Origin: Escherichia coli
GTDB taxonomy: Bacteria > Pseudomonadota > Gammaproteobacteria > Enterobacterales > Enterobacteriaceae
Assembly: GCF_050320075.1 (NCBI RefSeq)
Contig: NZ_CP190021.1
Strand: one strand, 5' to 3'
DNA: 64,000 nucleotides
The notes beneath the pieces are model-generated. The model did not search any database and was not told the origin of the DNA. It worked only from the letters and a program-made list of their open reading frames with translations. This document shows positions 5,904 through 27,022 of this stretch, piece after piece; within the stretch, counting starts at the first letter, position 1; each line of letters opens with the position of its first letter. The translations under genes were made by a program, and so were the position numbers.

Positions 5904-6719
5904 TTAGAAAAACTCATCGAGCATCAAATGAAACTGCAATTTATTCATATCAGGATTATCAATACCATATTTTTGAAAAAGCCGTTTCTGTAATGAAGGA
6001 GAAAACTCACCGAGGCAGTTCCATAGGATGGCAAGATCCTGGTATCGGTCTGCGATTCCGACTCGTCCAACATCAATACAACCTATTAATTTCCCCTCGT
6101 CAAAAATAAGGTTATCAAGTGAGAAATCACCATGAGTGACGACTGAATCCGGTGAGAATGGCAAAAGCTTATGCATTTCTTTCCAGACTTGTTCAACAGG
6201 CCAGCCATTACGCTCGTCATCAAAATCACTCGCATCAACCAAACCGTTATTCATTCGTGATTGCGCCTGAGCGAGACGAAATACGCGATCGCTGTTAAAA
6301 GGACAATTACAAACAGGAATCGAATGCAACCGGCGCAGGAACACTGCCAGCGCATCAACAATATTTTCACCTGAATCAGGATATTCTTCTAATACCTGGA
6401 ATGCTGTTTTCCCGGGGATCGCAGTGGTGAGTAACCATGCATCATCAGGAGTACGGATAAAATGCTTGATGGTCGGAAGAGGCATAAATTCCGTCAGCCA
6501 GTTTAGTCTGACCATCTCATCTGTAACATCATTGGCAACGCTACCTTTGCCATGTTTCAGAAACAACTCTGGCGCATCGGGCTTCCCATACAATCGATAG
6601 ATTGTCGCACCTGATTGCCCGACATTATCGCGAGCCCATTTATACCCATATAAATCAGCATCCATGTTGGAATTTAATCGCGGCCTCGAGCAAGACGTTT
6701 CCCGTTGAATATGGCTCAT
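5904..6719 (-). CDS. aph(3')-Ia: Aminoglycoside 3'-phosphotransferase APH(3')-Ia (kanamycin/neomycin resistance)
   Basis: 271-aa ORF MSHIQRETSCSRPRLNSNMDADLYGYKWARDNVGQSGATIYRLYGKP...; flanked by direct IS26 copies (Tn4352-like). Confidence 0.95.
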   Translation of the reverse strand: MSHIQRETSCSRPRLNSNMDADLYGYKWARDNVGQSGATIYRLYGKPDAPELFLKHGKGSVANDVTDEMVRLNWLTEFMPLPTIKHFIRTPDDAWLLTTAIPGKTAFQVLEEYPDSGENIVDALAVFLRRLHSIPVCNCPFNSDRVFRLAQAQSRMNNGLVDASDFDDERNGWPVEQVWKEMHKLLPFSPDSVVTHGDFSLDNLIFDEGKLIGCIDVGRVGIADRYQDLAILWNCLGEFSPSLQKRLFQKYGIDNPDMNKLQFHLMLDEFF

Positions 6720-6806
6720 AACACCCCTTGTATTACTGTTTATGTAAGCAGACAGTTTTATTGTTCATGATGATATATTTTTATCTTGTGCAATGTAACA
6801 TCAGAG

Positions 6807-7626
6807 GGCACTGTTGCAAATAGTCGGTGGTGATAAACTTATCATCCCCTTTTGCTGATGGAGCTGCACATGAACCCATTCAAAGGCCGGCATTTTCAGC
6901 GTGACATCATTCTGTGGGCCGTACGCTGGTACTGCAAATACGGCATCAGTTACCGTGAGCTGCAGGAGATGCTGGCTGAACGCGGAGTGAATGTCGATCA
7001 CTCCACGATTTACCGCTGGGTTCAGCGTTATGCGCCTGAAATGGAAAAACGGCTGCGCTGGTACTGGCGTAACCCTTCCGATCTTTGCCCGTGGCACATG
7101 GATGAAACCTACGTGAAGGTCAATGGCCGCTGGGCGTATCTGTACCGGGCCGTCGACAGCCGGGGCCGCACTGTCGATTTTTATCTCTCCTCCCGTCGTA
7201 ACAGCAAAGCTGCATACCGGTTTCTGGGTAAAATCCTCAACAACGTGAAGAAGTGGCAGATCCCGCGATTCATCAACACGGATAAAGCGCCCGCCTATGG
7301 TCGCGCGCTTGCTCTGCTCAAACGCGAAGGCCGGTGCCCGTCTGACGTTGAACACCGACAGATTAAGTACCGGAACAACGTGATTGAATGCGATCATGGC
7401 AAACTGAAACGGATAATCGGCGCCACGCTGGGATTTAAATCCATGAAGACGGCTTACGCCACCATCAAAGGTATTGAGGTGATGCGTGCACTACGCAAAG
7501 GCCAGGCCTCAGCATTTTATTATGGTGATCCCCTGGGCGAAATGCGCCTGGTAAGCAGAGTTTTTGAAATGTAAGGCCTTTGAATAAGACAAAAGGCTGC
7601 CTCATCGCTAACTTTGCAACAGTGCC
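6807..7626 (+). mobile_element. IS26 copy 2
   Basis: Terminal repeats identified; same orientation as copy 1. Confidence 0.95.
6852..7574 (+). CDS. tnpA: IS26 transposase
   Basis: 240-aa ORF nearly identical to copy 1 (one difference, D vs G near the C-terminus). Confidence 0.95.
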   Translation: MLMELHMNPFKGRHFQRDIILWAVRWYCKYGISYRELQEMLAERGVNVDHSTIYRWVQRYAPEMEKRLRWYWRNPSDLCPWHMDETYVKVNGRWAYLYRAVDSRGRTVDFYLSSRRNSKAAYRFLGKILNNVKKWQIPRFINTDKAPAYGRALALLKREGRCPSDVEHRQIKYRNNVIECDHGKLKRIIGATLGFKSMKTAYATIKGIEVMRALRKGQASAFYYGDPLGEMRLVSRVFEM

Positions 7627-7695
7627 GGATTGAATATAACCGACGTGACTGTTACATTTAGGTGGCTAAACCCGTCAAGCCCTCAGGAGTGAATC

Positions 7696-8601
7696 ATGAC
7701 CGTAGTCACGACCGCCGATACCTCCCAACTGTACGCACTTGCAGCCCGACATGGGCTCAAGCTCCATGGCCCGCTGACTGTCAATGAGCTTGGGCTCGAC
7801 TATAGGATCGTGATCGCCACCGTCGACGATGGACGTCGGTGGGTGCTGCGCATCCCGCGCCGAGCCGAGGTAAGCGCGAAGGTCGAACCAGAGGCGCGGG
7901 TGCTGGCAATGCTCAAGAATCGCCTGCCGTTCGCGGTGCCGGACTGGCGCGTGGCCAACGCCGAGCTCGTTGCCTATCCCATGCTCGAAGACTCGACTGC
8001 GATGGTCATCCAGCCTGGTTCGTCCACGCCCGACTGGGTCGTGCCGCAGGACTCGGAGGTCTTCGCGGAGAGCTTCGCGACCGCGCTCGCCGCCCTGCAT
8101 GCCGTCCCCATTTCCGCCGCCGTGGATGCGGGGATGCTCATCCGTACACCGACGCAGGCCCGTCAGAAGGTGGCCGACGACGTTGACCGCGTCCGACGCG
8201 AGTTCGTGGTGAACGACAAGCGCCTCCACCGGTGGCAGCGCTGGCTCGACGACGATTCGTCGTGGCCAGATTTCTCCGTGGTGGTGCATGGCGATCTCTA
8301 CGTGGGCCATGTGCTCATCGACAACACGGAGCGCGTCAGCGGGATGATCGACTGGAGCGAGGCCCGCGTTGATGACCCTGCCATCGACATGGCCGCGCAC
8401 CTTATGGTCTTTGGTGAAGAGGGGCTCGCGAAGCTCCTCCTCACGTATGAAGCGGCCGGTGGCCGGGTGTGGCCGCGGCTCGCCCACCACATCGCGGAGC
8501 GCCTTGCGTTCGGGGCGGTCACCTACGCACTCTTCGCCCTCGACTCGGGTAACGAAGAGTACCTCGCTGCGGCGAAGGCGCAGCTCGCCGCAGCGGAATG
8601 A
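7696..8601 (+). CDS. mph(A): Macrolide 2'-phosphotransferase Mph(A)
   Basis: 301-aa ORF MTVVTTADTSQLYALAARHGLKLHGPLTVNELGLDYRIV...; high-GC codon usage; followed by mrx and mphR. Confidence 0.95.
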   Translation: MTVVTTADTSQLYALAARHGLKLHGPLTVNELGLDYRIVIATVDDGRRWVLRIPRRAEVSAKVEPEARVLAMLKNRLPFAVPDWRVANAELVAYPMLEDSTAMVIQPGSSTPDWVVPQDSEVFAESFATALAALHAVPISAAVDAGMLIRTPTQARQKVADDVDRVRREFVVNDKRLHRWQRWLDDDSSWPDFSVVVHGDLYVGHVLIDNTERVSGMIDWSEARVDDPAIDMAAHLMVFGEEGLAKLLLTYEAAGGRVWPRLAHHIAERLAFGAVTYALFALDSGNEEYLAAAKAQLAAAE

Positions 8602-9836
8602 GCGAACGTCGATATAGCCCGCTCGCGACGCTGTTCGCGGCGACCTTTCTCTTCCGGATCGGCAACGCGGTGGCGGCCCTCGCGCTTCCATGGTTCGTCC
8701 TGTCTCATACAAAGAGCGCGGCCTGGGCGGGCGCCACGGCCGCTAGCAGCGTCATCGCGACCATCATCGGCGCGTGGGTTGGTGGTGGCCTCGTCGATCG
8801 GTTCGGGCGCGCGCCCGTCGCATTGATCTCGGGTGTGGTGGGCGGCGTGGCCATGGCGAGCATCCCACTGCTCGATGCCGTTGGCGCCCTCTCGAACACT
8901 GGGCTGATCGCTTGCGTGGTGCTCGGTGCCGCGTTCGACGCACCCGGTATGGCCGCGCAGGACAGTGAGCTGCCCAAACTCGGCCACGTCGCCGGGCTCT
9001 CCGTTGAGCGCGTCTCGTCACTGAAAGCGGTGATCGGGAACGTCGCGATTCTAGGTGGCCCGGCCCTTGGGGGGGCCGCAATCGGCCTGCTTGGCGCTGC
9101 GCCAACGCTCGGGCTGACGGCGTTCTGCTCCGTCCTTGCAGGTCTGCTCGGCGCGTGGGTGCTTCCCGCGCGTGCCGCTCGGACGATGACCACGACGGCG
9201 ACTCTCTCCATGCGCGCCGGCGTCGCTTTTCTCTGGAGCGAACCCCTGCTGCGCCCTCTCTTTGGTATAGTGATGATCTTCGTGGGCATCGTTGGCGCCA
9301 ACGGCAGCGTCATCATGCCTGCGCTGTTTGTAGATGCAGGACGCCAAGTAGCAGAGCTCGGGCTGTTCTCCTCAATGATGGGGGCTGGTGGTCTCCTTGG
9401 CATTGCCATTCATGCGTCGGTCGGCGCCCGGATATCAGCGCAGAACTGGCTGGCGGTGGCATTTTGTGGCTCTGCGGTGGGCTCGCTTCTGCTTTCACAG
9501 TTGCCAGGCGTGCCGGTGCTGATGTTGTTGGGCGCGCTCGTGGGACTGCTGACCGGCTCAGTCTCTCCCATTCTCAACGCTGCCATCTACAACCGCACGC
9601 CGCCAGAACTTCTCGGCCGGGTACTCGGCACGGTCTCGGCGGTGATGCTGTCAGCCTCGCCCATGGTTATGCTTGCGGCCGGCGCGTTTGTCGACCTTGC
9701 TGGTCCGCTCCCTGGCCTCGTTGTATCGGCCGTGTTTGCGGGGCTCGTGGCTCTACTCTCGCTCCGTCTTCAATTTGCTACAATGGCGGCGGCAGCCACA
9801 GCCTCCGCCCCAACCCATACAGAAGGTGAACACTGA
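8598..9836 (+). CDS. mrx: MFS-type membrane protein Mrx
   Basis: 412-aa hydrophobic ORF overlapping the mph(A) stop; canonical mph(A)-mrx-mphR(A) order. Confidence 0.9.
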   Translation: MSERRYSPLATLFAATFLFRIGNAVAALALPWFVLSHTKSAAWAGATAASSVIATIIGAWVGGGLVDRFGRAPVALISGVVGGVAMASIPLLDAVGALSNTGLIACVVLGAAFDAPGMAAQDSELPKLGHVAGLSVERVSSLKAVIGNVAILGGPALGGAAIGLLGAAPTLGLTAFCSVLAGLLGAWVLPARAARTMTTTATLSMRAGVAFLWSEPLLRPLFGIVMIFVGIVGANGSVIMPALFVDAGRQVAELGLFSSMMGAGGLLGIAIHASVGARISAQNWLAVAFCGSAVGSLLLSQLPGVPVLMLLGALVGLLTGSVSPILNAAIYNRTPPELLGRVLGTVSAVMLSASPMVMLAAGAFVDLAGPLPGLVVSAVFAGLVALLSLRLQFATMAAAATASAPTHTEGEH

Positions 9837-10420
9837 TGCCCCGCCCCAAGCTCAAGTCCGATGACGAGGTACTCGAGGCCGCCACCGTAGTGCTGAAGCG
9901 TTGCGGTCCCATAGAGTTCACGCTCAGCGGAGTAGCAAAGGAGGTGGGGCTCTCCCGCGCAGCGTTAATCCAGCGCTTCACCAACCGCGATACGCTGCTG
10001 GTGAGGATGATGGAGCGCGGCGTCGAGCAGGTGCGGCATTACCTGAATGCGATACCGATAGGCGCAGGGCCGCAAGGGCTCTGGGAATTTTTGCAGGTGC
10101 TCGTTCGGAGCATGAACACTCGCAACGACTTCTCGGTGAACTATCTCATCTCCTGGTACGAGCTCCAGGTGCCGGAGCTACGCACGCTTGCGATCCAGCG
10201 GAACCGCGCGGTGGTGGAGGGGATCCGCAAGCGACTGCCCCCAGGTGCTCCTGCGGCAGCTGAGTTGCTCCTGCACTCGGTCATCGCTGGCGCGACGATG
10301 CAGTGGGCCGTCGATCCGGATGGTGAGCTAGCTGATCATGTGCTGGCTCAGATCGCTGCCATCCTGTGTTTAATGTTTCCCGAACACGACGATTTCCAAC
10401 TCCTCCAGGCACATGCGTAA
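9836..10420 (+). CDS. mphR(A): TetR-family repressor MphR(A)
   Basis: 194-aa ORF immediately after mrx. Confidence 0.9.
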   Translation: MPRPKLKSDDEVLEAATVVLKRCGPIEFTLSGVAKEVGLSRAALIQRFTNRDTLLVRMMERGVEQVRHYLNAIPIGAGPQGLWEFLQVLVRSMNTRNDFSVNYLISWYELQVPELRTLAIQRNRAVVEGIRKRLPPGAPAAAELLLHSVIAGATMQWAVDPDGELADHVLAQIAAILCLMFPEHDDFQLLQAHA

Positions 10421-13790: not shown

Positions 13791-14576
13791 ATGCAGCACC
13801 TGCCGGCACCGATCCACCATGCCCGGGATGCTGCTCAGCTTCCTGTTGCCATCGATTATCCGGCAGCGCTGGCACTCCGCCAGATGTCGATGGTTCATGA
13901 TGAACTGCCAAAATACCTGCTGGCCCCTGAAGTGAGCGCCCTGCTCCATTACGTGCCGGATCTGCGCCGCAAAATGCTGCTGGCCACACTGTGGAACACC
14001 GGTGCGCGCATTAATGAAGCACTGGCGCTGACGCGGGGGGATTTTTCGCTTGCGCCTCCGTATCCGTTTGTGCAGTTGGCCACTCTGAAGCAGCGGACCG
14101 AAAAAGCCGCCAGGACGGCAGGAAGAATGCCCGCCGGTCAGCAGACTCACCGGCTGGTTCCGCTCTCTGACGCCTGGTACGTCAGCCAGCTGCAGACGAT
14201 GGTGGCCACACTGAAAATCCCCATGGAACGGCGTAATAAACGAACAGGCAGGACAGAGAAAGCGCGGATCTGGGAAGTGACGGACAGAACGGTCAGGACC
14301 TGGATTGGGGAGGCGGTTGCCGCCGCTGCCGCTGATGGAGTGACGTTCTCTGTCCCGGTCACGCCACATACGTTCCGCCATTCCTATGCGATGCACATGC
14401 TGTATGCCGGTATACCGCTGAAGGTCCTGCAGAGTCTGATGGGGCATAAGTCCATCAGCTCAACGGAGGTCTACACGAAGGTCTTTGCGCTGGATGTCGC
14501 GGCGCGTCATCGTGTGCAGTTCGCCATGCCGGAAGCCGATGCGGTAGCGCTGATAAAACAACTTGAGAGGCGTTAA
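13791..14576 (+). CDS. Tyrosine site-specific recombinase (XerD/ResD-like, probable multimer resolvase)
   Basis: C-terminal HTFRHSYAMHMLYAG...LMGHKSISSTEVYTKV motifs (catalytic R-H-R-Y region); probable start MQHLPAP at 13791 within track ORF 13638-14576. Confidence 0.8.
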   Translation: MQHLPAPIHHARDAAQLPVAIDYPAALALRQMSMVHDELPKYLLAPEVSALLHYVPDLRRKMLLATLWNTGARINEALALTRGDFSLAPPYPFVQLATLKQRTEKAARTAGRMPAGQQTHRLVPLSDAWYVSQLQTMVATLKIPMERRNKRTGRTEKARIWEVTDRTVRTWIGEAVAAAAADGVTFSVPVTPHTFRHSYAMHMLYAGIPLKVLQSLMGHKSISSTEVYTKVFALDVAARHRVQFAMPEADAVALIKQLERR

Positions 14577-14823
14577 AAAGCCGTATTCGCGGTTCAGTCA
14601 AGGGGGAGCTGGTGCATTCATCTATGGAAGATAGAGCACCAAACTCATAGAGGCCACGTTCTCAGGCCAGAACAGTCTTATATCTCTGGCGCTGACAACC
14701 CATAGTACTTGCCTGGATGGGAAACTCTTCTTGTGCCGAGCGTAAGAGCCATCTGCCGGAACGCTTCCTCGCCAGTTCGCTCGCTACGCACAGTTACATG
14801 GCTGCGGCGAGGGCTGCCTGATT

Positions 14824-15150
14824 CTAATAATGATATTTCAGCATGATAGCAGCAATAAAATAGATTGCAGCTATCATGCTGTACACATACGGCCTAGCGC
14901 TCTGTTTATGTTATGCTATCTGCAATCTTGCGGCAATCTTGCTTCATCTGTCGATGCGATTCTGAATGAGGTTTCTTTTATTGTTAACGTGACACAAGTA
15001 TTCGGCTGTCAATTCCAGCACTCTGCTAAGTAGCAAGATTATTTATTGTTGCAATCTTGCTGCAAGCTGTTATCTTGTTCTGGAAGAGTTACTCTACCTA
15101 ATCTCAATCTGGTTTATATTGATGTTTGCTGCAAGATAGCAGCAAGTAAA
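14824..15150. repeat. Partition-site/operator iterons upstream of parA (TGCAATCTTGC and GCATGATAGCAGCAA units)
   Basis: At least six copies of the GCAAGATTGCA-type motif in both orientations, read from sequence. Confidence 0.7.
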
Positions 15151-15159
15151 GGGGGCTAA

Positions 15160-15792
15160 ATGGCCTGGATAGTTGGTTTTATTTCTCAGAAAGGTGGTGT
15201 GGGCAAAAGCACTAAAGCGAGAGCGTTAGCGCGTGAAGCATCCGCCTGTGGTATCAAAACAAAATTAGCTGATCTCGACTTGGAACAGGCAACGAGTGCT
15301 GAGTGGCATCGTAGACGTCTGTCAGCTGGTTTGTCACCGGTTGCTTCCGTTGAAGTGTTTTCAACAGCAAAGCAGGCGATAGAATCTGCCGGCGATTTTG
15401 ACCTTCTGATTCTTGATGGCCCTGCTCGTGCAAGTAAAGGTACTTCAGAAATTGCTAAGGTCGCCGACCTTATCGTCCAGCCAACGGGAGCCTCCCTTGA
15501 CGATCTTGTCCCGGCAATTAAAGTTTTCAACGCGTTGGTAAAAGAAGGTATACCACGTTCAAAACTGGTCTTCGCTTTAAGCCGGGTAGGTACCGAAGCG
15601 GAAGAGCTGGATGCTCGTGCATATATCAGTGAAGCAGGTTATGAAACTTTATCTGGATGCCTTTTTGAGAAGCCAGCATACAGAAAAGCGATGAATTCAG
15701 GACTCGCTGTGACAGAAACACGTTATAAAGGTTTAAACGAGAGAGCTGATGAACTTATCCAGGCACTCATCGATAAGATTGGAGAAGAGTAA
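15160..15792 (+). CDS. parA: ParA-family Walker ATPase (small type Ib partition ATPase)
   Basis: 210-aa ORF with deviant Walker A KGGVGKST. Confidence 0.9.
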   Translation: MAWIVGFISQKGGVGKSTKARALAREASACGIKTKLADLDLEQATSAEWHRRRLSAGLSPVASVEVFSTAKQAIESAGDFDLLILDGPARASKGTSEIAKVADLIVQPTGASLDDLVPAIKVFNALVKEGIPRSKLVFALSRVGTEAEELDARAYISEAGYETLSGCLFEKPAYRKAMNSGLAVTETRYKGLNERADELIQALIDKIGEE

Positions 15793-16166
15793 TGGCTGAT
15801 GCGTCAAAACTTAGAACTAAAAGAACCCGTAGTGGGTTGGGGGTACCCCCGGGCCCCGACGAAGTGGCTACCAGCTTGAATGCGCCTGAGATAGCTCCGG
15901 CTGTCGCTGCCACTGATGTTCAGAGACAACAGGCAGACTCATCGCCAGTGCACCATGAGCCTGTGGTTACGCAAACAGTGACCGAGGTATATACCCGCCG
16001 CGATGGCCGTTCTGCCAGAAAAACAAACAGGACGCTGGCATTTGCAACACGTGTCACACCTGCTTTCGACCAAGAGATCCGGGATATCGCAGAGCGTGAG
16101 GGGTTGAAACTGGTGGAAGTTCTGGAAAAAGCAGTTGAGGCATATAAGGAAAAACAGGGCTATTAA
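15792..16166 (+). CDS. parB: Partition adaptor (ParG/ParB-like, probable RHH C-terminus)
   Basis: 124-aa ORF coupled to parA (stop/start overlap); flanked by iterons. Confidence 0.6.
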   Translation: MADASKLRTKRTRSGLGVPPGPDEVATSLNAPEIAPAVAATDVQRQQADSSPVHHEPVVTQTVTEVYTRRDGRSARKTNRTLAFATRVTPAFDQEIRDIAEREGLKLVEVLEKAVEAYKEKQGY

Positions 16167-16167
16167 T

Positions 16168-16270
16168 CCGGGATGCAGCAATCTTGCTGCATTCTTTTTT
16201 TGTGTGCAATCTTGCAGCAAGATTTATGCTAGATAAATGCTAGATTGCTGCAAGATAAATGATATAATGC
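16168..16270. repeat. Second cluster of TGCAATCTTGC-type iterons downstream of the par operon
   Basis: Read from sequence (GCAATCTTGCTGCA, TGCAATCTTGCAGCAAGATT, AGATTGCTGCAAGAT). Confidence 0.7.
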
Positions 16271-16274
16271 TCAA

Positions 16275-16400
16275 ATTGAGTAGTTAACTGCCCAAGTGAA
16301 GTACGCAGCTTGAGTACTTACCTGTGGTTTATGAGCGTATTTACTTAATGTGAGTAGTTATTGTGTAAAGATGAATACTCAAGTTGAGTATAAATGGAGA
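16275..16400. repeat. parC-like iterons (TGAGTAnTTA units) upstream of the actin-like partition ATPase
   Basis: About six copies of (T/G)TGAGTA(G/C)TTA read from sequence. Confidence 0.6.
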
Positions 16401-16404
16401 TGGT

Positions 16405-17379
16405 ATGAGAATTTTTTGCGATGATGGTTCTACAAATGTGAAACTTGCCTGGTTTGAAGGCAAGACGCTGAAAAGTGCGGTATCAGTGAACTCTTTTCGC
16501 CATAACTGGAAAGTCGAGGGCTTAGGCAGCAGTCGTACTTATAACTATCTGCTTGATGGCCGTAAATATACCTACGACCCGGTCAGCGAAGATGCGATCA
16601 GCACGACTCATATTGAGTATCAGTACTCTGATACAAATGTGTTGGCAGTTCACCACGCATTACTGAACAGTGGCATTGAACCCCAGGAGATCGATCTCAC
16701 CGTTACGTTACCTATCAGCGAGTTTTACACGGCCGACTGCCAGAAAAATACGCTTAACATTGAGAGAAAAATTCGCAACCTGATGCGAGAAGTCACCCTG
16801 AACAAAGGGGGAACTTTTACCATTAAAAGCGTTGAAGTGATGCCTGAATCACTCCCGGCTGTATTTACTCGCCTAGTTACTGACAACGTTGGTCAGTACG
16901 AAAAATCATTGGTTATCGATCTCGGTGGTACAACTCTGGATGTCGGGGTTATTGTTGGCCAGTTTGAGGATGTTTCGGCTGTACATGGTAATCCTGATAT
17001 TGGTGTATCAATGGTCACGAAAGCCACGCTCACTGCACTGAAAATGGCCAGCAGTGATACCAGTCCAATGATTGCTGACGAGTTGATCAAAAACAGGAAT
17101 AACCTGGATTTTGTGGGGCAGGTTGTAAATGAGGTCTCTAAACTAAATCTGGTGCTGGATACCATTGATACAGCGATAAATAAACTGGGCGAGCTAGTTG
17201 TTGATGATTTGCTGCAGTATCGAAACGTAAACCGCGTATATATTGTCGGTGGCGGGGCTGCACTCATTGCTGATGCTGTTCGTAAGGCATGGAACCACCT
17301 TGGCGAAAAGGTGGTTCTTATGGATGAACCTCAGACAGCGCTGGTCCAGGCTATTGCACGCTTCAAAGCGGAGGAGTAA
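16405..17379 (+). CDS. stbA: Actin-like segregation ATPase ParM/StbA
   Basis: MRIFCDDGSTNVKLAW N-terminus (ParM phosphate-1 motif), DLGGTTLD and VYIVGGGA motifs; ATG at 16405 preferred over the TTG at 16384 used by the track. Confidence 0.85.
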   Translation: MRIFCDDGSTNVKLAWFEGKTLKSAVSVNSFRHNWKVEGLGSSRTYNYLLDGRKYTYDPVSEDAISTTHIEYQYSDTNVLAVHHALLNSGIEPQEIDLTVTLPISEFYTADCQKNTLNIERKIRNLMREVTLNKGGTFTIKSVEVMPESLPAVFTRLVTDNVGQYEKSLVIDLGGTTLDVGVIVGQFEDVSAVHGNPDIGVSMVTKATLTALKMASSDTSPMIADELIKNRNNLDFVGQVVNEVSKLNLVLDTIDTAINKLGELVVDDLLQYRNVNRVYIVGGGAALIADAVRKAWNHLGEKVVLMDEPQTALVQAIARFKAEE

Positions 17380-17382
17380 TCG

Positions 17383-17775
17383 ATGTACGAAGGCGAAGAA
17401 AGGAAAAAACTTTCACTCTACCTTCACCCGGAGGACTCTGCCGATTGTCTTGCACTGGCTGAAATCGAAACTGTTCCCCGGAAAAAACGGGGGGAGTTAT
17501 ATCGGCAGGCTTTGATAACCGGCCTGATAATGCATCAGCTTGATGAGCGAATTCCCGCCGTGTTAACCGCGCTATTCACCAGAGAATTGAATGCGGATGA
17601 GGTCATTAGTCAGATTGCCAGGATAACAGGCTGGAAACCCTCCTCCGGTGATTTAAAAGAGGTACTGAAGGCGTTGGGAGGGCTTCAGAGTACAGTTTCA
17701 CCAGAACACTCTCAGGATGACGGTGAACAGGCCCGTCTGAAAGCGGCTAGGGTGAAGATGCAAAACCTGATCTAA
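17383..17775 (+). CDS. stbB: ParR/StbB-like partition adaptor
   Basis: 130-aa ORF 4 bp after stbA. Confidence 0.6.
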   Translation: MYEGEERKKLSLYLHPEDSADCLALAEIETVPRKKRGELYRQALITGLIMHQLDERIPAVLTALFTRELNADEVISQIARITGWKPSSGDLKEVLKALGGLQSTVSPEHSQDDGEQARLKAARVKMQNLI

Positions 17776-17858
17776 AAAAGTCTCGCTCCGTGAAACCTGC
17801 AAAATTTCTCGGGGTGTGCGGCTTAATTTTTAGATTTCCGCGTTTCCCGTCATTTGAG

Positions 17859-18038
17859 TCAATGGAGTGCTGGTTGACAGCTCCTCACTCTGAAGGACGG
17901 GGATTCCCACATATGCAGCCAGATTTCCGGGTAGTGTGGTTTCAGACGTTGTTCGATTTCATTCTGTAGCGCCTGAAGTGTGCCTGATTTGAGTTTTTTT
18001 GTGCTCTGGCGGTCGAAAAGAATTTCAATGCGGATCAT
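17859..18038 (-). pseudogene. impC: impC-like (DinI-family) remnant, 59 codons, diverging after ~40 residues
   Basis: Minus-strand translation MIRIEILFDRQSTKKLKSGTLQALQNEIEQRLKPHYPEIW..., recognised from memory as the ImpC N-terminus; no umuD/umuC-like impA/impB follow; below the track's length cutoff. Confidence 0.55.
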
Positions 18039-18061
18039 GTTCTCATCTTCCTTTTCTTTTG

Positions 18062-18077
18062 CTGTATATATATACAG
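18062..18077. promoter_or_regulatory. Consensus LexA (SOS) box CTGTATATATATACAG
   Basis: Exact CTGT-N8-ACAG palindrome 24 bp upstream of the impC-like start. Confidence 0.85.
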
Positions 18078-18431
18078 TATTCTAATAACTGAATCCGCAC
18101 ACAGTCAAATGTCATTGTTCTGACTAAAAAACGCTCAATTCTCTGAGGGTATGGCTGTATGCCTGCTGTGGAGTGCTGTGTCCAGCTTATCCACAGCATT
18201 TTGTGCACGGTTCTGTGGACAAAATACCTGGTTACCCAGGCCGTGCCGGCACGTTAACCGGGCTGCATCCGATGCAAGTGTGTCGCTGTCGCCGGCCTCC
18301 TCACCCGGTCACGTTTCGTCGTTCCTCCTCCACGCGCTGCGGCTTCGGGGCCGCACCTGCATTCGTATGCGGTCGCCCGGTTACAGGTGCGGCACGGCCT
18401 GATGGAGGCCGCATGTGAGAGGAGAATTCCC

Positions 18432-25057: not shown

Positions 25058-27022
25058 ATGATTATGCCTGTAACGAAGTGTGAACCAGAAACCACCCGCA
25101 AAGCAAGCCGTAAATCTGTAAAAACGCAGGAAACTGTCCTGTCTGCCCTGCTGGCGCAGACGGAGGAAGTGAGCGTGCCGCTGGCCTCGCTGATTAAATC
25201 ACCGCTGAATGTGCGCACGGTGCCGTATTCTGCGGAGTCCGTCAGCGAACTGGCGGAGTCCATTAAGGGCGTCGGACTGCTGCAGAATCTGGTCGTGCAT
25301 ACCCTGCCTGGTGACCGTTACGGTGTCGCCGCAGGTGGTCGCCGACTGGCTGCACTCAACATGCTGGCAGAGCGTGGCATCATTCCGGCTGACTGGCCTG
25401 TACGCGTGAAGGTTATTCCGCAGGAGCTGGCGACGGCTGCATCAATGACTGAAAACGGTCATCGTCGGGATATGCACCCTGCCGAACAGATTGCCGGATT
25501 CCGTGCGATGGCGCAGGAAGGCAAAACGCCTGCACAAATCGGTGATTTGCTGGGCTATTCGCCCCGCCACGTTCAGCGAATGCTGAAACTGGCAGACCTT
25601 GCGCCTGTCATCCTCGATGCGCTGGCAGAAGACCGCATCACCACAGAGCACTGTCAGGCGCTGGCGCTGGAGAACGACACCGCGCGTCAGGTGCAGGTGT
25701 TTGAAGCCGCCTGCCAGTCGGGATGGGGCGGTAAACCGGAAGTACAGACCATTCGTCGTCTGGTGACCGAAAGTGAAGTGGCGGTGGCAGGTAACAGTAA
25801 ATTCCGCTTCGTGGGGGCTGATGCTTTCTCACCTGACGAACTGCGTACTGATTTGTTCAGCGATGACGGGGACGGTTATGTCGACCGCGTGGCGCTCGAT
25901 GCTGCCCTGCTGGAAAAACTCCAGGCTGTCGCTGAACACCTTCGGGAAGCCGAAGGCTGGGAATGGTGCGCCGGACGCATGGAGCCTGTCGGTGAGTGCC
26001 GTGAGGATGCCGGAACATACCGCTGTCTGCCGGAGCCGGAAGCGGTGCTGACGGAGGCAGAAGAAGAACGCCTGAACGAACTGATGACGCGTTACGACGC
26101 GCTGGAAAACCAGTGTGAGGAATCCGACCTGCTGGAAGCAGAAATGAAGCTGATGCGCTGCATGGCGAAGGTCAGGGCGTGGACGCCGGAGATGCGTGCC
26201 GGAAGTGGCGTGGTGGTGTCCTGGCGTTATGGAAACGTATGTGTCCAGCGTGGTGTGCAGTTGCGCAGTGAAGATGACGCGACTGATGACGCTGACCGCA
26301 CGGAACAGGTGCAGGAGAAAGCGTCAGTGGAGGAAATCAGTCTGCCGTTGCTGACGAAAATGTCTTCCGAACGCACGCTGGCAGTCCAGGCAGCACTGAT
26401 GCAGCAACCGGACAAATCTCTGGCACTGCTGGCATGGACGCTCTGCCTGAATGTGTTTGACAGCGGAGCGTACAGTAAACCAGCACAAATCAGCCTGGAA
26501 TGTAAACATTATTCGCTGACCAGCGATGCGCCGTCAGGGAAGGAAGGTGCCGCATTCCTGGCGCTGATGGCAGAAAAAGCCCGTCTTGCGGCCCTGTTAC
26601 CGGAGGGATGGTCACGGGACATGACGACGTTCCTGTCACTCAGTCAGGAGGTGCTGTTATCCCTGCTCAGTTTCTGCACCGCATGCAGCCTTAACGGTGT
26701 CCAGACCCGCGAGTGTGGTCGCACGTCACGCAGTCCGCTTGACTCACTGGAGAGCGCCATCGGTTTTCACATGCGCGACTGGTGGCAGCCGACGAAAGCA
26801 AACTTCTTCGGACACCTGAAAAAGCCGCAGATTATCGCAGCCCTGAATGATGCCGGACTGTCCGGTGCCGCACGGGACGCAGAGAAGATGAAGAAAGGCG
26901 ATGCCGCTGAACATGCAGAGTTCCATATGAAAGACAACCGCTGGGTGCCTGGCTGGATGTGTTCACCACGTCCACAGACGGATGCCACTGAACGCGCCGA
27001 TAACCTGGCTGATGCCGCCTGA
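25058..27022 (+). CDS. ParB/Srx-like N-terminal domain protein of the leading region
   Basis: 654-aa ORF; N-terminal region has a ParB-box-like GGRRLAA motif and an HTH-like segment. Confidence 0.75.
   Translation: MIMPVTKCEPETTRKASRKSVKTQETVLSALLAQTEEVSVPLASLIKSPLNVRTVPYSAESVSELAESIKGVGLLQNLVVHTLPGDRYGVAAGGRRLAALNMLAERGIIPADWPVRVKVIPQELATAASMTENGHRRDMHPAEQIAGFRAMAQEGKTPAQIGDLLGYSPRHVQRMLKLADLAPVILDALAEDRITTEHCQALALENDTARQVQVFEAACQSGWGGKPEVQTIRRLVTESEVAVAGNSKFRFVGADAFSPDELRTDLFSDDGDGYVDRVALDAALLEKLQAVAEHLREAEGWEWCAGRMEPVGECREDAGTYRCLPEPEAVLTEAEEERLNELMTRYDALENQCEESDLLEAEMKLMRCMAKVRAWTPEMRAGSGVVVSWRYGNVCVQRGVQLRSEDDATDDADRTEQVQEKASVEEISLPLLTKMSSERTLAVQAALMQQPDKSLALLAWTLCLNVFDSGAYSKPAQISLECKHYSLTSDAPSGKEGAAFLALMAEKARLAALLPEGWSRDMTTFLSLSQEVLLSLLSFCTACSLNGVQTRECGRTSRSPLDSLESAIGFHMRDWWQPTKANFFGHLKKPQIIAALNDAGLSGAARDAEKMKKGDAAEHAEFHMKDNRWVPGWMCSPRPQTDATERADNLADAA

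Follow-up and report, generated by a model that had tools for sequence, protein, structure and literature searches.

The stretch of Escherichia coli DNA analysed here, 64,000 nucleotides of contig NZ_CP190021.1 (assembly GCF_050320075.1; hereafter the window), carries two plasmid partition systems side by side: a small Walker-type ATPase gene, parA, followed by a gene for a 124-residue adaptor (parB), and an actin-like pair, parM and parR, preceded by parC repeats. We propose with good confidence that these elements form a single conserved double partition (par) stability module of about 3.1 kb (~14715-17815), in which a type Ib-like Walker unit stands next to a type II unit of the pB171 par1 lineage. 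A sequence-only reading of this DNA had placed two different cassettes at 15160-16166 and 16405-17775, each with its own repeat type. The open reading frame (ORF) calls match these coordinates exactly, and both repeat sets are clustered far beyond chance.

Purifying selection acts on all four genes, each of which is intact, and neither cassette is a pseudogene cluster. The whole module is found at 91-94% nucleotide identity on a Klebsiella IncFII/IncR plasmid (L004) and on an E. coli IncFIA plasmid (L006), with identical ORF lengths, and the four ORFs keep the same lengths, uninterrupted, in copies that are about 9% and about 34% diverged. Ratios of nonsynonymous to synonymous substitution rates (Ka/Ks), calculated against the 91%-identical Klebsiella copy, are 0.03 for parA, 0.14 for parB, 0.06 for parM and 0.24 for parR. 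The sequence-only reading had named a frameshifted pseudogene cluster in related sequences as the outcome that would overturn it; intact ORFs together with the Ka/Ks values (0.03-0.24) rule out such decay. On a Salmonella plasmid (L009) the same four-gene order persists although synonymous sites are saturated, with protein identities of 86% (ParA), 64% (ParB), 72% (ParM) and 45% (ParR).

The ParA-ParB-ParM-ParR tandem is present in L004, L006 and L009, and in five of five distant ParB homologues sampled (57-72% identical to the 124-residue protein; Salmonella, Erwinia, Citrobacter, Morganella and Pectobacterium contigs). These five tandems adjoin differing replication or recombination genes, mostly followed by convergent umuDC-like genes. 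The region between parB and parM is composite, and most lineages have its elements in the same order: first a hairpin (GCAGC...GCTGC) with its T run, next the ParB-type repeats, then a -10-like hexamer, the ParR palindromes, which some lineages have in smaller number and more degenerate form, and lastly a Shine-Dalgarno sequence. Exceptions without ParMR are pYV-WA314 (L008), where IS256 lies directly after parB, L010, which has another gene, and L005, which is cut inside parC. The ParA cassettes without ParMR keep their flanking heptamers, as expected of a self-sufficient unit. These comparisons indicate that the cassettes travel as one conserved unit across unrelated backbones and distant Enterobacterales, and that their pairing is not recent. 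The conserved four-gene synteny is a new observation.

The product of parA has the properties of a type Ib ATPase, namely small size (210 residues, where ~200-230 are usual), a deviant Walker A motif near the N-terminus (SQKGGVGKST, residues 9-18) and no helix-turn-helix extension before it. Its Pfam match is CbiA/MipZ, and in the PDB it matches ParF (4dzz) and ParA (5u1g), both at 5e-7. As in other type Ib operons, a small adaptor gene follows directly, and the parA-parB pair is kept in all relatives examined. The adaptor belongs to a family of 243 homologues, of which a few UniRef entries are named 'stability/partitioning determinant'. Family members are 100-138 residues long, the variation being confined to a low-complexity linker, and share two invariant parts, a basic peptide at the N-terminus (MADASKLK.KR.R..LG.PPGP..VATSL.APE.AP) and a block at the C-terminus (RRDGRSARKT.R...FATRV.P.FD..IRDIA...G.KLVEVLE.A..AYK). 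The adaptor has no sequence or profile match in Pfam, NCBIfam or PDB, including no significant match to the ribbon-helix-helix (RHH) families of Pfam. This family, for which neither Pfam nor NCBIfam has a model and whose RefSeq annotation is 'hypothetical protein', is newly recognized here. AlphaFold (AF2) predicts two confident helices at residues 90-122 (C-terminal predicted local distance difference test score, pLDDT, ~88) and no strand in the monomer; the C-terminal helix-helix domain is probably an RHH domain. By analogy with ParG-like adaptors of type Ib systems, the N-terminal basic peptide may plausibly act as a ParA-stimulating tail.

Arrays of short repeats around the operon, another feature of type Ib loci, lie both upstream and downstream of parAB. 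The sequence GCAATCTTGC has exactly 5 copies in the 64-kb window, all within 14922-16215, and 9 of the 15 window copies of the heptamer ATCTTGC/GCAAGAT are in the ~410 bp that flank parAB (binomial P ~1e-16, for zones chosen post hoc). With one mismatch allowed, ATCTTGC-type sites number 15, distributed in two arrays and in both orientations, and the four exact window copies of the palindrome TTGCWGCAA are all beside parAB. The sequence-only reading had described these repeats as iterons; they are indeed clustered on the flanks of parAB, but as they stand in both orientations, a description as simple direct iterons does not fit. Homologous parAB genes in seven other loci, including pYV-WA314 (ParA 78% identical), are flanked by identical repeat words, and the heptamer is the top or near-top enriched word upstream of homologous parAB in L004, L005, L006, L008, L009 and L010. 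These sites, called ParB-type below, are presumably the targets of the adaptor. The upstream region of the window (14880-15040) lacks three blocks of ~49, 40 and 18 bp that are present in L004, L005 and L006. Two of these blocks hold extra ParB-type repeats, so that site number differs between module alleles by insertions and deletions.

Closer to parA, the palindrome TTGCTGCAAGATAGCAGCAA is invariant in the window, L004, L005 and L006 and probably mediates autorepression of parAB. On the other side of the operon, the hairpin GGGATGCAGCAATCTTGCTGCATTCT (-16.6 kcal/mol, z = -3.0) includes a ParB-type repeat in its stem; hairpin and T run are kept in distant loci. The two-hexamer promoter scan gave no convincing promoter for parA or parM, and a candidate parA promoter, TATATT at 15115-15120, was set aside as poorly conserved. 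Further upstream lies a GC-rich segment (14715-14835) that relatives invariably have in front of the parA upstream repeats, whether an integrase, rep or repE lies beyond it. The segment has no Rfam family and a fold z-score of +0.9, and neither an Rfam match nor a structured RNA was found there or in the rest of 14400-18400; one possibility is that it is a target site of a recombinase. Two short ORFs of this region were rejected as genes and treated as non-coding because indels in relatives break both: one of 45 codons (14709-14846), interrupted by an 11-bp indel, and one of 67 codons (14830-15033), which also has no Pfam match.

The actin unit shows what is expected of a type II system: the nucleotide-binding motifs of ParM are intact, parR lies directly downstream and parC repeats stand before parM. 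ParM aligns with R1 ParM in the PDB over 305 residues (1e-81) with conservation of the phosphate- and adenosine-binding motifs DDGSTN, IDLGGTTLD and GGGA, the second of which covers the D170 position (PMC6519299). We placed the parM start at the ATG at 16405 and not at an upstream TTG because the StbA_N domain begins there and GGAG is found 5 nt upstream. ParR matches the pB171 ParR/StbB structure 2jd3 over residues 4-129 (8e-34).

The repeats before parM had been read as TGAGTAnTTA iterons. The repeats are real, and this word has exactly 3 copies, within 84 bp; the units themselves are halves of four inverted-repeat 15-bp sites, TACTCAAnTTGAGTA, that form parC. At up to 2 mismatches, TACTCAAnTTGAGTA has 5 matches in the window against 0.08 expected. 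Between the last parC site and the parM start codon are 14 bp, and the outer palindromes are kept in L009 (66% overall identity) and in L011-L019. ParR presumably binds these sites. A candidate parMR promoter abuts the first of them; its -10 hexamer is conserved as TATAAT, TATGAT or TATATT in L004, L006, L009, L011, L013 and L015, from which we infer that parC overlaps the promoter. Its -35 zone holds the last ParB-type site (16239-16256), as it does in most lineages. A possible fifth ParR-type site, GACTCATATTGAGTA, is located inside parM. L006, L007 and L009 have the same nucleotides there or nearly so, synonymous positions included, against a background of saturated synonymous divergence. 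This is weak evidence because the codons encode the conserved peptide TTHIEY, and GACTCATATTGAGTA could be either an intragenic ParR site or a mere product of codon constraint on that peptide.

Taken together, the features suggest how the two units might work, both contributing to plasmid stabilization. In the Walker unit, dimers of the ParB-like adaptor would bind the ATCTTGC/TTGCWGCAA arrays on either side of parAB, and these protein-DNA complexes would then stimulate ParA-ATP bound to the nucleoid and, moved along a ParA gradient, become equi-positioned. parAB is probably autoregulated as well, through the upstream sites and the palindrome by the ribosome-binding site, and the hairpin with its T run would terminate the parAB transcript. 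In the actin unit, ParR would bind the four TACTCAAnTTGAGTA sites of parC, repress its own promoter and cap ParM filaments, thereby coupling the plasmid to filaments that push sister plasmids apart. In most lineages the candidate parMR promoter has a ParB-type site, the last of the array, in its -35 zone, which suggests that ParB may also repress parMR. Such repression or modulation is speculative, by analogy with the regulatory cross-talk of pB171 as cited in PMC4270457 and PMC6519299. A stronger version of the idea, which we find doubtful, is that the module is ancient and obligately coupled, with the ParB array serving as the -35 operator of parMR and the two machines being used hierarchically or conditionally, and that swapping of whole par modules at the IncI1 site would determine partition incompatibility among epidemic plasmids that are otherwise alike.

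The module occupies a site at which IncI1 plasmids differ. Between the ResD-like recombinase gene and impC/DUF1281 (window ~13791-18400; L003 995-4077; L007 948-6336) we found at least three alternative partition modules: a single type Ib locus with impCAB, exemplified by pESBL; a pB171-type divergent double locus with impCAB, exemplified by L007, which is on an IncI1-type plasmid; and the tandem double module of the window. At a coverage of at least 80%, these have 1265, 996 and ~302 PLSDB records, respectively, counts that span plasmids of all types and not IncI1 alone. At the right junction of the tandem module only a remnant of impC is left, whose first 43 of 82 residues align with pESBL ImpC before diverging. 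From 17911, a point inside impC, the sequence is again homologous to the backbones of pESBL and L007, and its homology to the Klebsiella copy (L004) stops at ~17815; the 95 bp between these two points have no homologue in the compared loci except L006, which has the whole junction. The window lacks the umuDC-like genes impA and impB, which lie beside par in other IncI1 plasmids and in most of the module's distant relatives. The breakpoints at the right edge point to exchange or trimming of the module as a whole, and module exchange or deletion has, on this comparison, shaped the locus. The exchange pattern at the IncI1 site is also a new observation.

This pattern bears on the suggestion, made in the sequence-only reading beside that of possible redundancy, that the double system may reflect recombination between backbones. 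The suggestion holds for the module as a whole, which has been exchanged or trimmed at the IncI1 site with truncation of impC, but not for its two cassettes, which share their order in distant lineages and were not joined recently. A reading in which the duality is an accident of recent backbone recombination, and one cassette a decaying or silent redundant passenger, could draw on the alternative par modules of IncI1 plasmids, on the truncation of impC by the right edge, on the ParA cassettes without ParMR in L005, L008 and L010, and on the near dispensability in the laboratory of one of the two systems of pINV and SCP1 (PMC6519299, PMC13245405). We nevertheless regard it as very unlikely: purifying selection on all four genes argues against a passenger, at least 80% of the full query length is covered in ~300 PLSDB plasmids, the repeats of both kinds are conserved together with the composite layout between parB and parM, and lineages so distant that their synonymous divergence is saturated have the same four-gene order. 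Recent assembly of the pair is thus largely refuted. It is similarly improbable that the Walker cassette is not an independent partition system and serves ParMRC as a regulator or accessory (a ParB-like repressor of parMR, with ParA as co-factor) or has some other positioning task. The conserved ParB-type sites in the -35 zone, the tight conserved linkage, which suggests functional integration, and the absence of a match between the ParB-like protein and known centromere-binding proteins would fit such a role. Against this, on pYV-WA314 and L010 the ParA cassette stands alone and is flanked by the same repeats, the architecture matches that of validated type Ib loci (PMC7602700), and such systems can combine regulation with partition. 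Finally, the repeats flanking parAB might be merely transcription signals, the true centromere being elsewhere or absent, given that the first downstream repeat forms a terminator-like hairpin and that the palindrome at 15126-15145 is in an operator-like position. This appears even less probable, since at least 15 sites in two arrays and both orientations go far beyond the needs of an operator and a terminator, site number varies across lineages while the motif is conserved, and pB171 uses dual arrays as centromeres, while those of pESBL are bound by its ParB (PMC7602700).

The reading of the locus as a conserved double module that we prefer has to accommodate several observations that weigh against it. 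ParA matches the NCBIfam model ParA_partition over its full length (1e-26), yet at 93.6 bits it falls below the 180-bit cut-off. The adaptor has no sequence match to any characterized centromere-binding protein in the PDB, profile and hhalign comparisons. Foldseek searches with its C-terminus returned mostly RHH proteins (CopG, Arc, SvtR, NikA, MatP and ParG) with a template modelling (TM) score of 0.7 relative to the target, at non-significant E-values of 2 or more, and the AF2 model of a linker-joined dimer, of low confidence, contained no ribbon; for these two reasons the RHH fold is no more than probable. Because the first downstream repeat doubles as the stem of the terminator, part of the downstream cluster may be purely transcriptional. 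Precedents in which one of two systems contributes little in the laboratory (pINV, PMC6519299; SCP1, PMC13245405) mean that equal function of the two units is not assured. A limited literature search found no paper characterizing the tandem lineage, the adaptor family or the ATCTTGC/TTGCWGCAA sites.

Table. Features of the double partition module and of neighbouring regions of the window.
Feature	Position	Strand	Basis or remark
Conserved GC-rich non-coding segment	14715..14835	.	86-94% identical in L004, L005, L006
Upstream ParB-type site cluster 'parS1', candidate centromere/operator	14839..15078	.	Repeat and pattern scans; inverted repeat 14839-14881; ATCTTGC 14925, 14936, 15054; GCAAGAT 15033; degenerate copies 15062, 15072
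Palindrome TTGCTGCAAGATAGCAGCAA, candidate autoregulatory operator	15126..15145	.	15 bp upstream of parA start codon
parA, small Walker-type (deviant Walker A) partition ATPase, type Ib-like	15160..15792	+	210 residues
parB-like putative centromere-binding adaptor	15792..16166	+	124 residues; 1-nt overlap with parA (TAATG), translationally coupled
Intrinsic-terminator-like hairpin GGGATGCAGCAATCTTGCTGCATTCT and T run after parB	16170..16205	+	Terminator scan
Downstream ParB-type site cluster 'parS2'	16173..16256	.	Conserved in L004, L006, L009 and L011-L019; ATCTTGC 16181, 16209; GCAAGAT 16217, 16250; GCTAGAT 16228, 16239; TTGCWGCAA 16212, 16245
Candidate parMR promoter, extended -10 TGaTATAAT	16260..16268	+	Read from sequence by eye; abuts first ParR site
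parC, four 15-bp ParR-type sites TACTCAAnTTGAGTA	16268, 16302, 16342, 16376 (16268..16390)	.	Spacing 34, 40, 34
parM, actin-like segregation ATPase	16405..17379	+	Pfam StbA_N 2e-68, ParM C-terminal domain 3e-43
Possible fifth ParR-type site GACTCATATTGAGTA inside parM	16605..16619	.	Codons ~67-71
parR, ribbon-helix-helix adaptor of ParM	17383..17775	+	Pfam Plasmid_stab_B 3e-28; 3-nt gap after parM
impC (DinI-like) remnant, right junction of module	17859..18038	-	BLASTP against pESBL ImpC
Tyrosine site-specific recombinase, ResD-like, presumed multimer resolvase	13791..14576	+	Pfam Phage_integrase 4.5e-18
APH-family phosphotransferase gene	5904-6719	-	Resistance-type cluster
APH-family phosphotransferase gene	7696-8601	+	Resistance-type cluster
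MFS (major facilitator superfamily) transporter	8598-9836		Resistance-type cluster
TetR-family regulator	9836-10420		Resistance-type cluster

More than 100 deposited plasmids of E. coli and Salmonella, 85-120 kb in size, contain the region 14600-17900 at 100% identity. Among them is TY474p2 of S. Typhimurium ST4/74, which is typed IncI-gamma/K1, MOBP and MPF_I. The deposited annotation reads 'ParA family protein', 'hypothetical protein', 'ParM domain-containing protein' and 'plasmid partitioning/stability family protein'. The remaining content of the window is consistent with an IncI1-type conjugative plasmid, with a leading region comprising ssb, a ParB/Spo0J-family ORF, psiA and ardA, and a relaxase gene and large ORFs at positions matching the tra genes of pESBL. 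The ORF between ssb and psiA (25058-27022, + strand, 654 residues) brings the par-like genes of the window to a third; its domains are ParB N-terminal and ParB helix-turn-helix, and it belongs to neither partition cassette. Upstream of the stability region, a resistance-type gene cluster extends over 5904-10420. The recombinase that precedes the module has NCBIfam XerD/XerC-like matches below the cut-off and is called 'site-specific integrase' in NC_017675. Homologues 79-81% identical to it are upstream of the par modules of L004, L007 and L010, and in relatives it is often linked with the ParA cassette.

IncI1 plasmids of this type spread blaCMY-2, extended-spectrum beta-lactamase (ESBL) and other resistance genes in Salmonella and E. 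coli of food-animal and human origin, and the persistence of plasmids without selection depends on stability modules. If our interpretation is correct, a large IncI1 subgroup possesses a conserved, uncharacterized tandem of type Ib and type II systems in place of the pESBL/R64 par locus. Results obtained with pESBL would therefore not be simply transferable to this subgroup, and IncI1 lineages may differ in partition incompatibility.

The closest known arrangement to compare is the double par locus of pB171 (par1, ParMRC, type II; par2, ParABC, type Ib), whose features are taken here from the pB171-type locus L007, from PDB 2jd3 and from secondary papers. There, too, type Ib and type II systems are adjacent, with a small ParA and small adaptors, and parAB is flanked on either side by ParB-site arrays (parC1 and parC2; PMC4270457), as in the window. 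Both the pB171-type locus and the tandem module adjoin impCAB/umuDC-like genes. ParM is 69% and ParR 46% identical between the window and L007, and the ParR site motif CTCAAnTTGAGTA is common to both, directly after the -10 hexamer. L007 has two ParR sites (2938-2998), CTCAAATTGAGTATT and CTCAGATTGAGTATT, directly after a TATGAT hexamer, against four in the window. The Walker units are far less alike. In global alignments ParA is 33% and ParB 26% identical, comparison of the adaptor family with the pB171-type ParB family by hhalign gave a probability of 0.4% and no detectable homology, and the ParB sites are ATCTTGC/TTGCWGCAA in the window against TGAAGTATGA-type repeats in L007. Moreover, the four genes of the window are in tandem, all on the + strand, whereas those of L007 diverge around a shared control region. 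Strict membership of the pB171-type double par class is ruled out by the lack of detectable ParB homology, the 33% identity of ParA and the tandem orientation; the alignments place the actin unit in the pB171 par1 lineage and the Walker unit in a different one. The shared ParR motif makes it conceivable that ParR proteins of tandem and pB171-type modules recognize each other's sites, which would entail partition incompatibility between them.

The par locus of the IncI1 plasmids pESBL/R64, with a type Ib ParA, a ParB of 100 residues and GATAACAA octamers (PMC7602700), comes from the same plasmid group and holds the same backbone position, next to impCAB and the DUF1281 gene. Like the Walker unit of the window, it combines a small Walker ParA with a small ParB of an orphan family and has two-orientation arrays upstream and downstream. 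However, its ParA is only 26% identical to that of the window, the ParB proteins do not align, pESBL lacks ParMR, and no copy of the GATAACAA octamer occurs in 14577-16404; the low ParA identity, the non-aligning ParB and the missing octamer rule out that the two loci are the same. Type Ib operons with repeat arrays on either flank are known from pESBL, pB171 and pSM19035 (PMC7602700). In the ParF/ParG/parH system of TP228, also type Ib, ParF is the best solved-structure match of the window ParA (4dzz, 5e-7), though a distant one. ParG is a weak fold match of the adaptor C-terminus without sequence similarity, and in parH the tetramer boxes form just one array (PMC3130281), unlike the two arrays of the window.

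Combinations of Walker and actin partition systems occur in pB171, pUTI89, R27 and pINV (PMC9800825, PMC6519299), and a 2026 survey counted 971 PLSDB plasmids with both a type I system of the RHH-ParB kind and a type II system (PMC13245405). For R27 (IncHI1; Par1/Par2) and pINV (ParAB and StbAB), both systems are reported to be functional (PMC13245405, PMC6519299, PMC9800825). The likeness of R27 and pUTI89 to the window module is one of description. In pINV the Walker system is P1-like and the two loci are ~90 kb apart (PMC6519299), unlike the adjacent cassettes of the window. Double partition loci are already familiar as a type of arrangement, which the module of the window represents on a very commonly sequenced plasmid; besides the divergent loci, its tandem offers a second natural arrangement in which cross-talk between Walker and actin systems can be studied.

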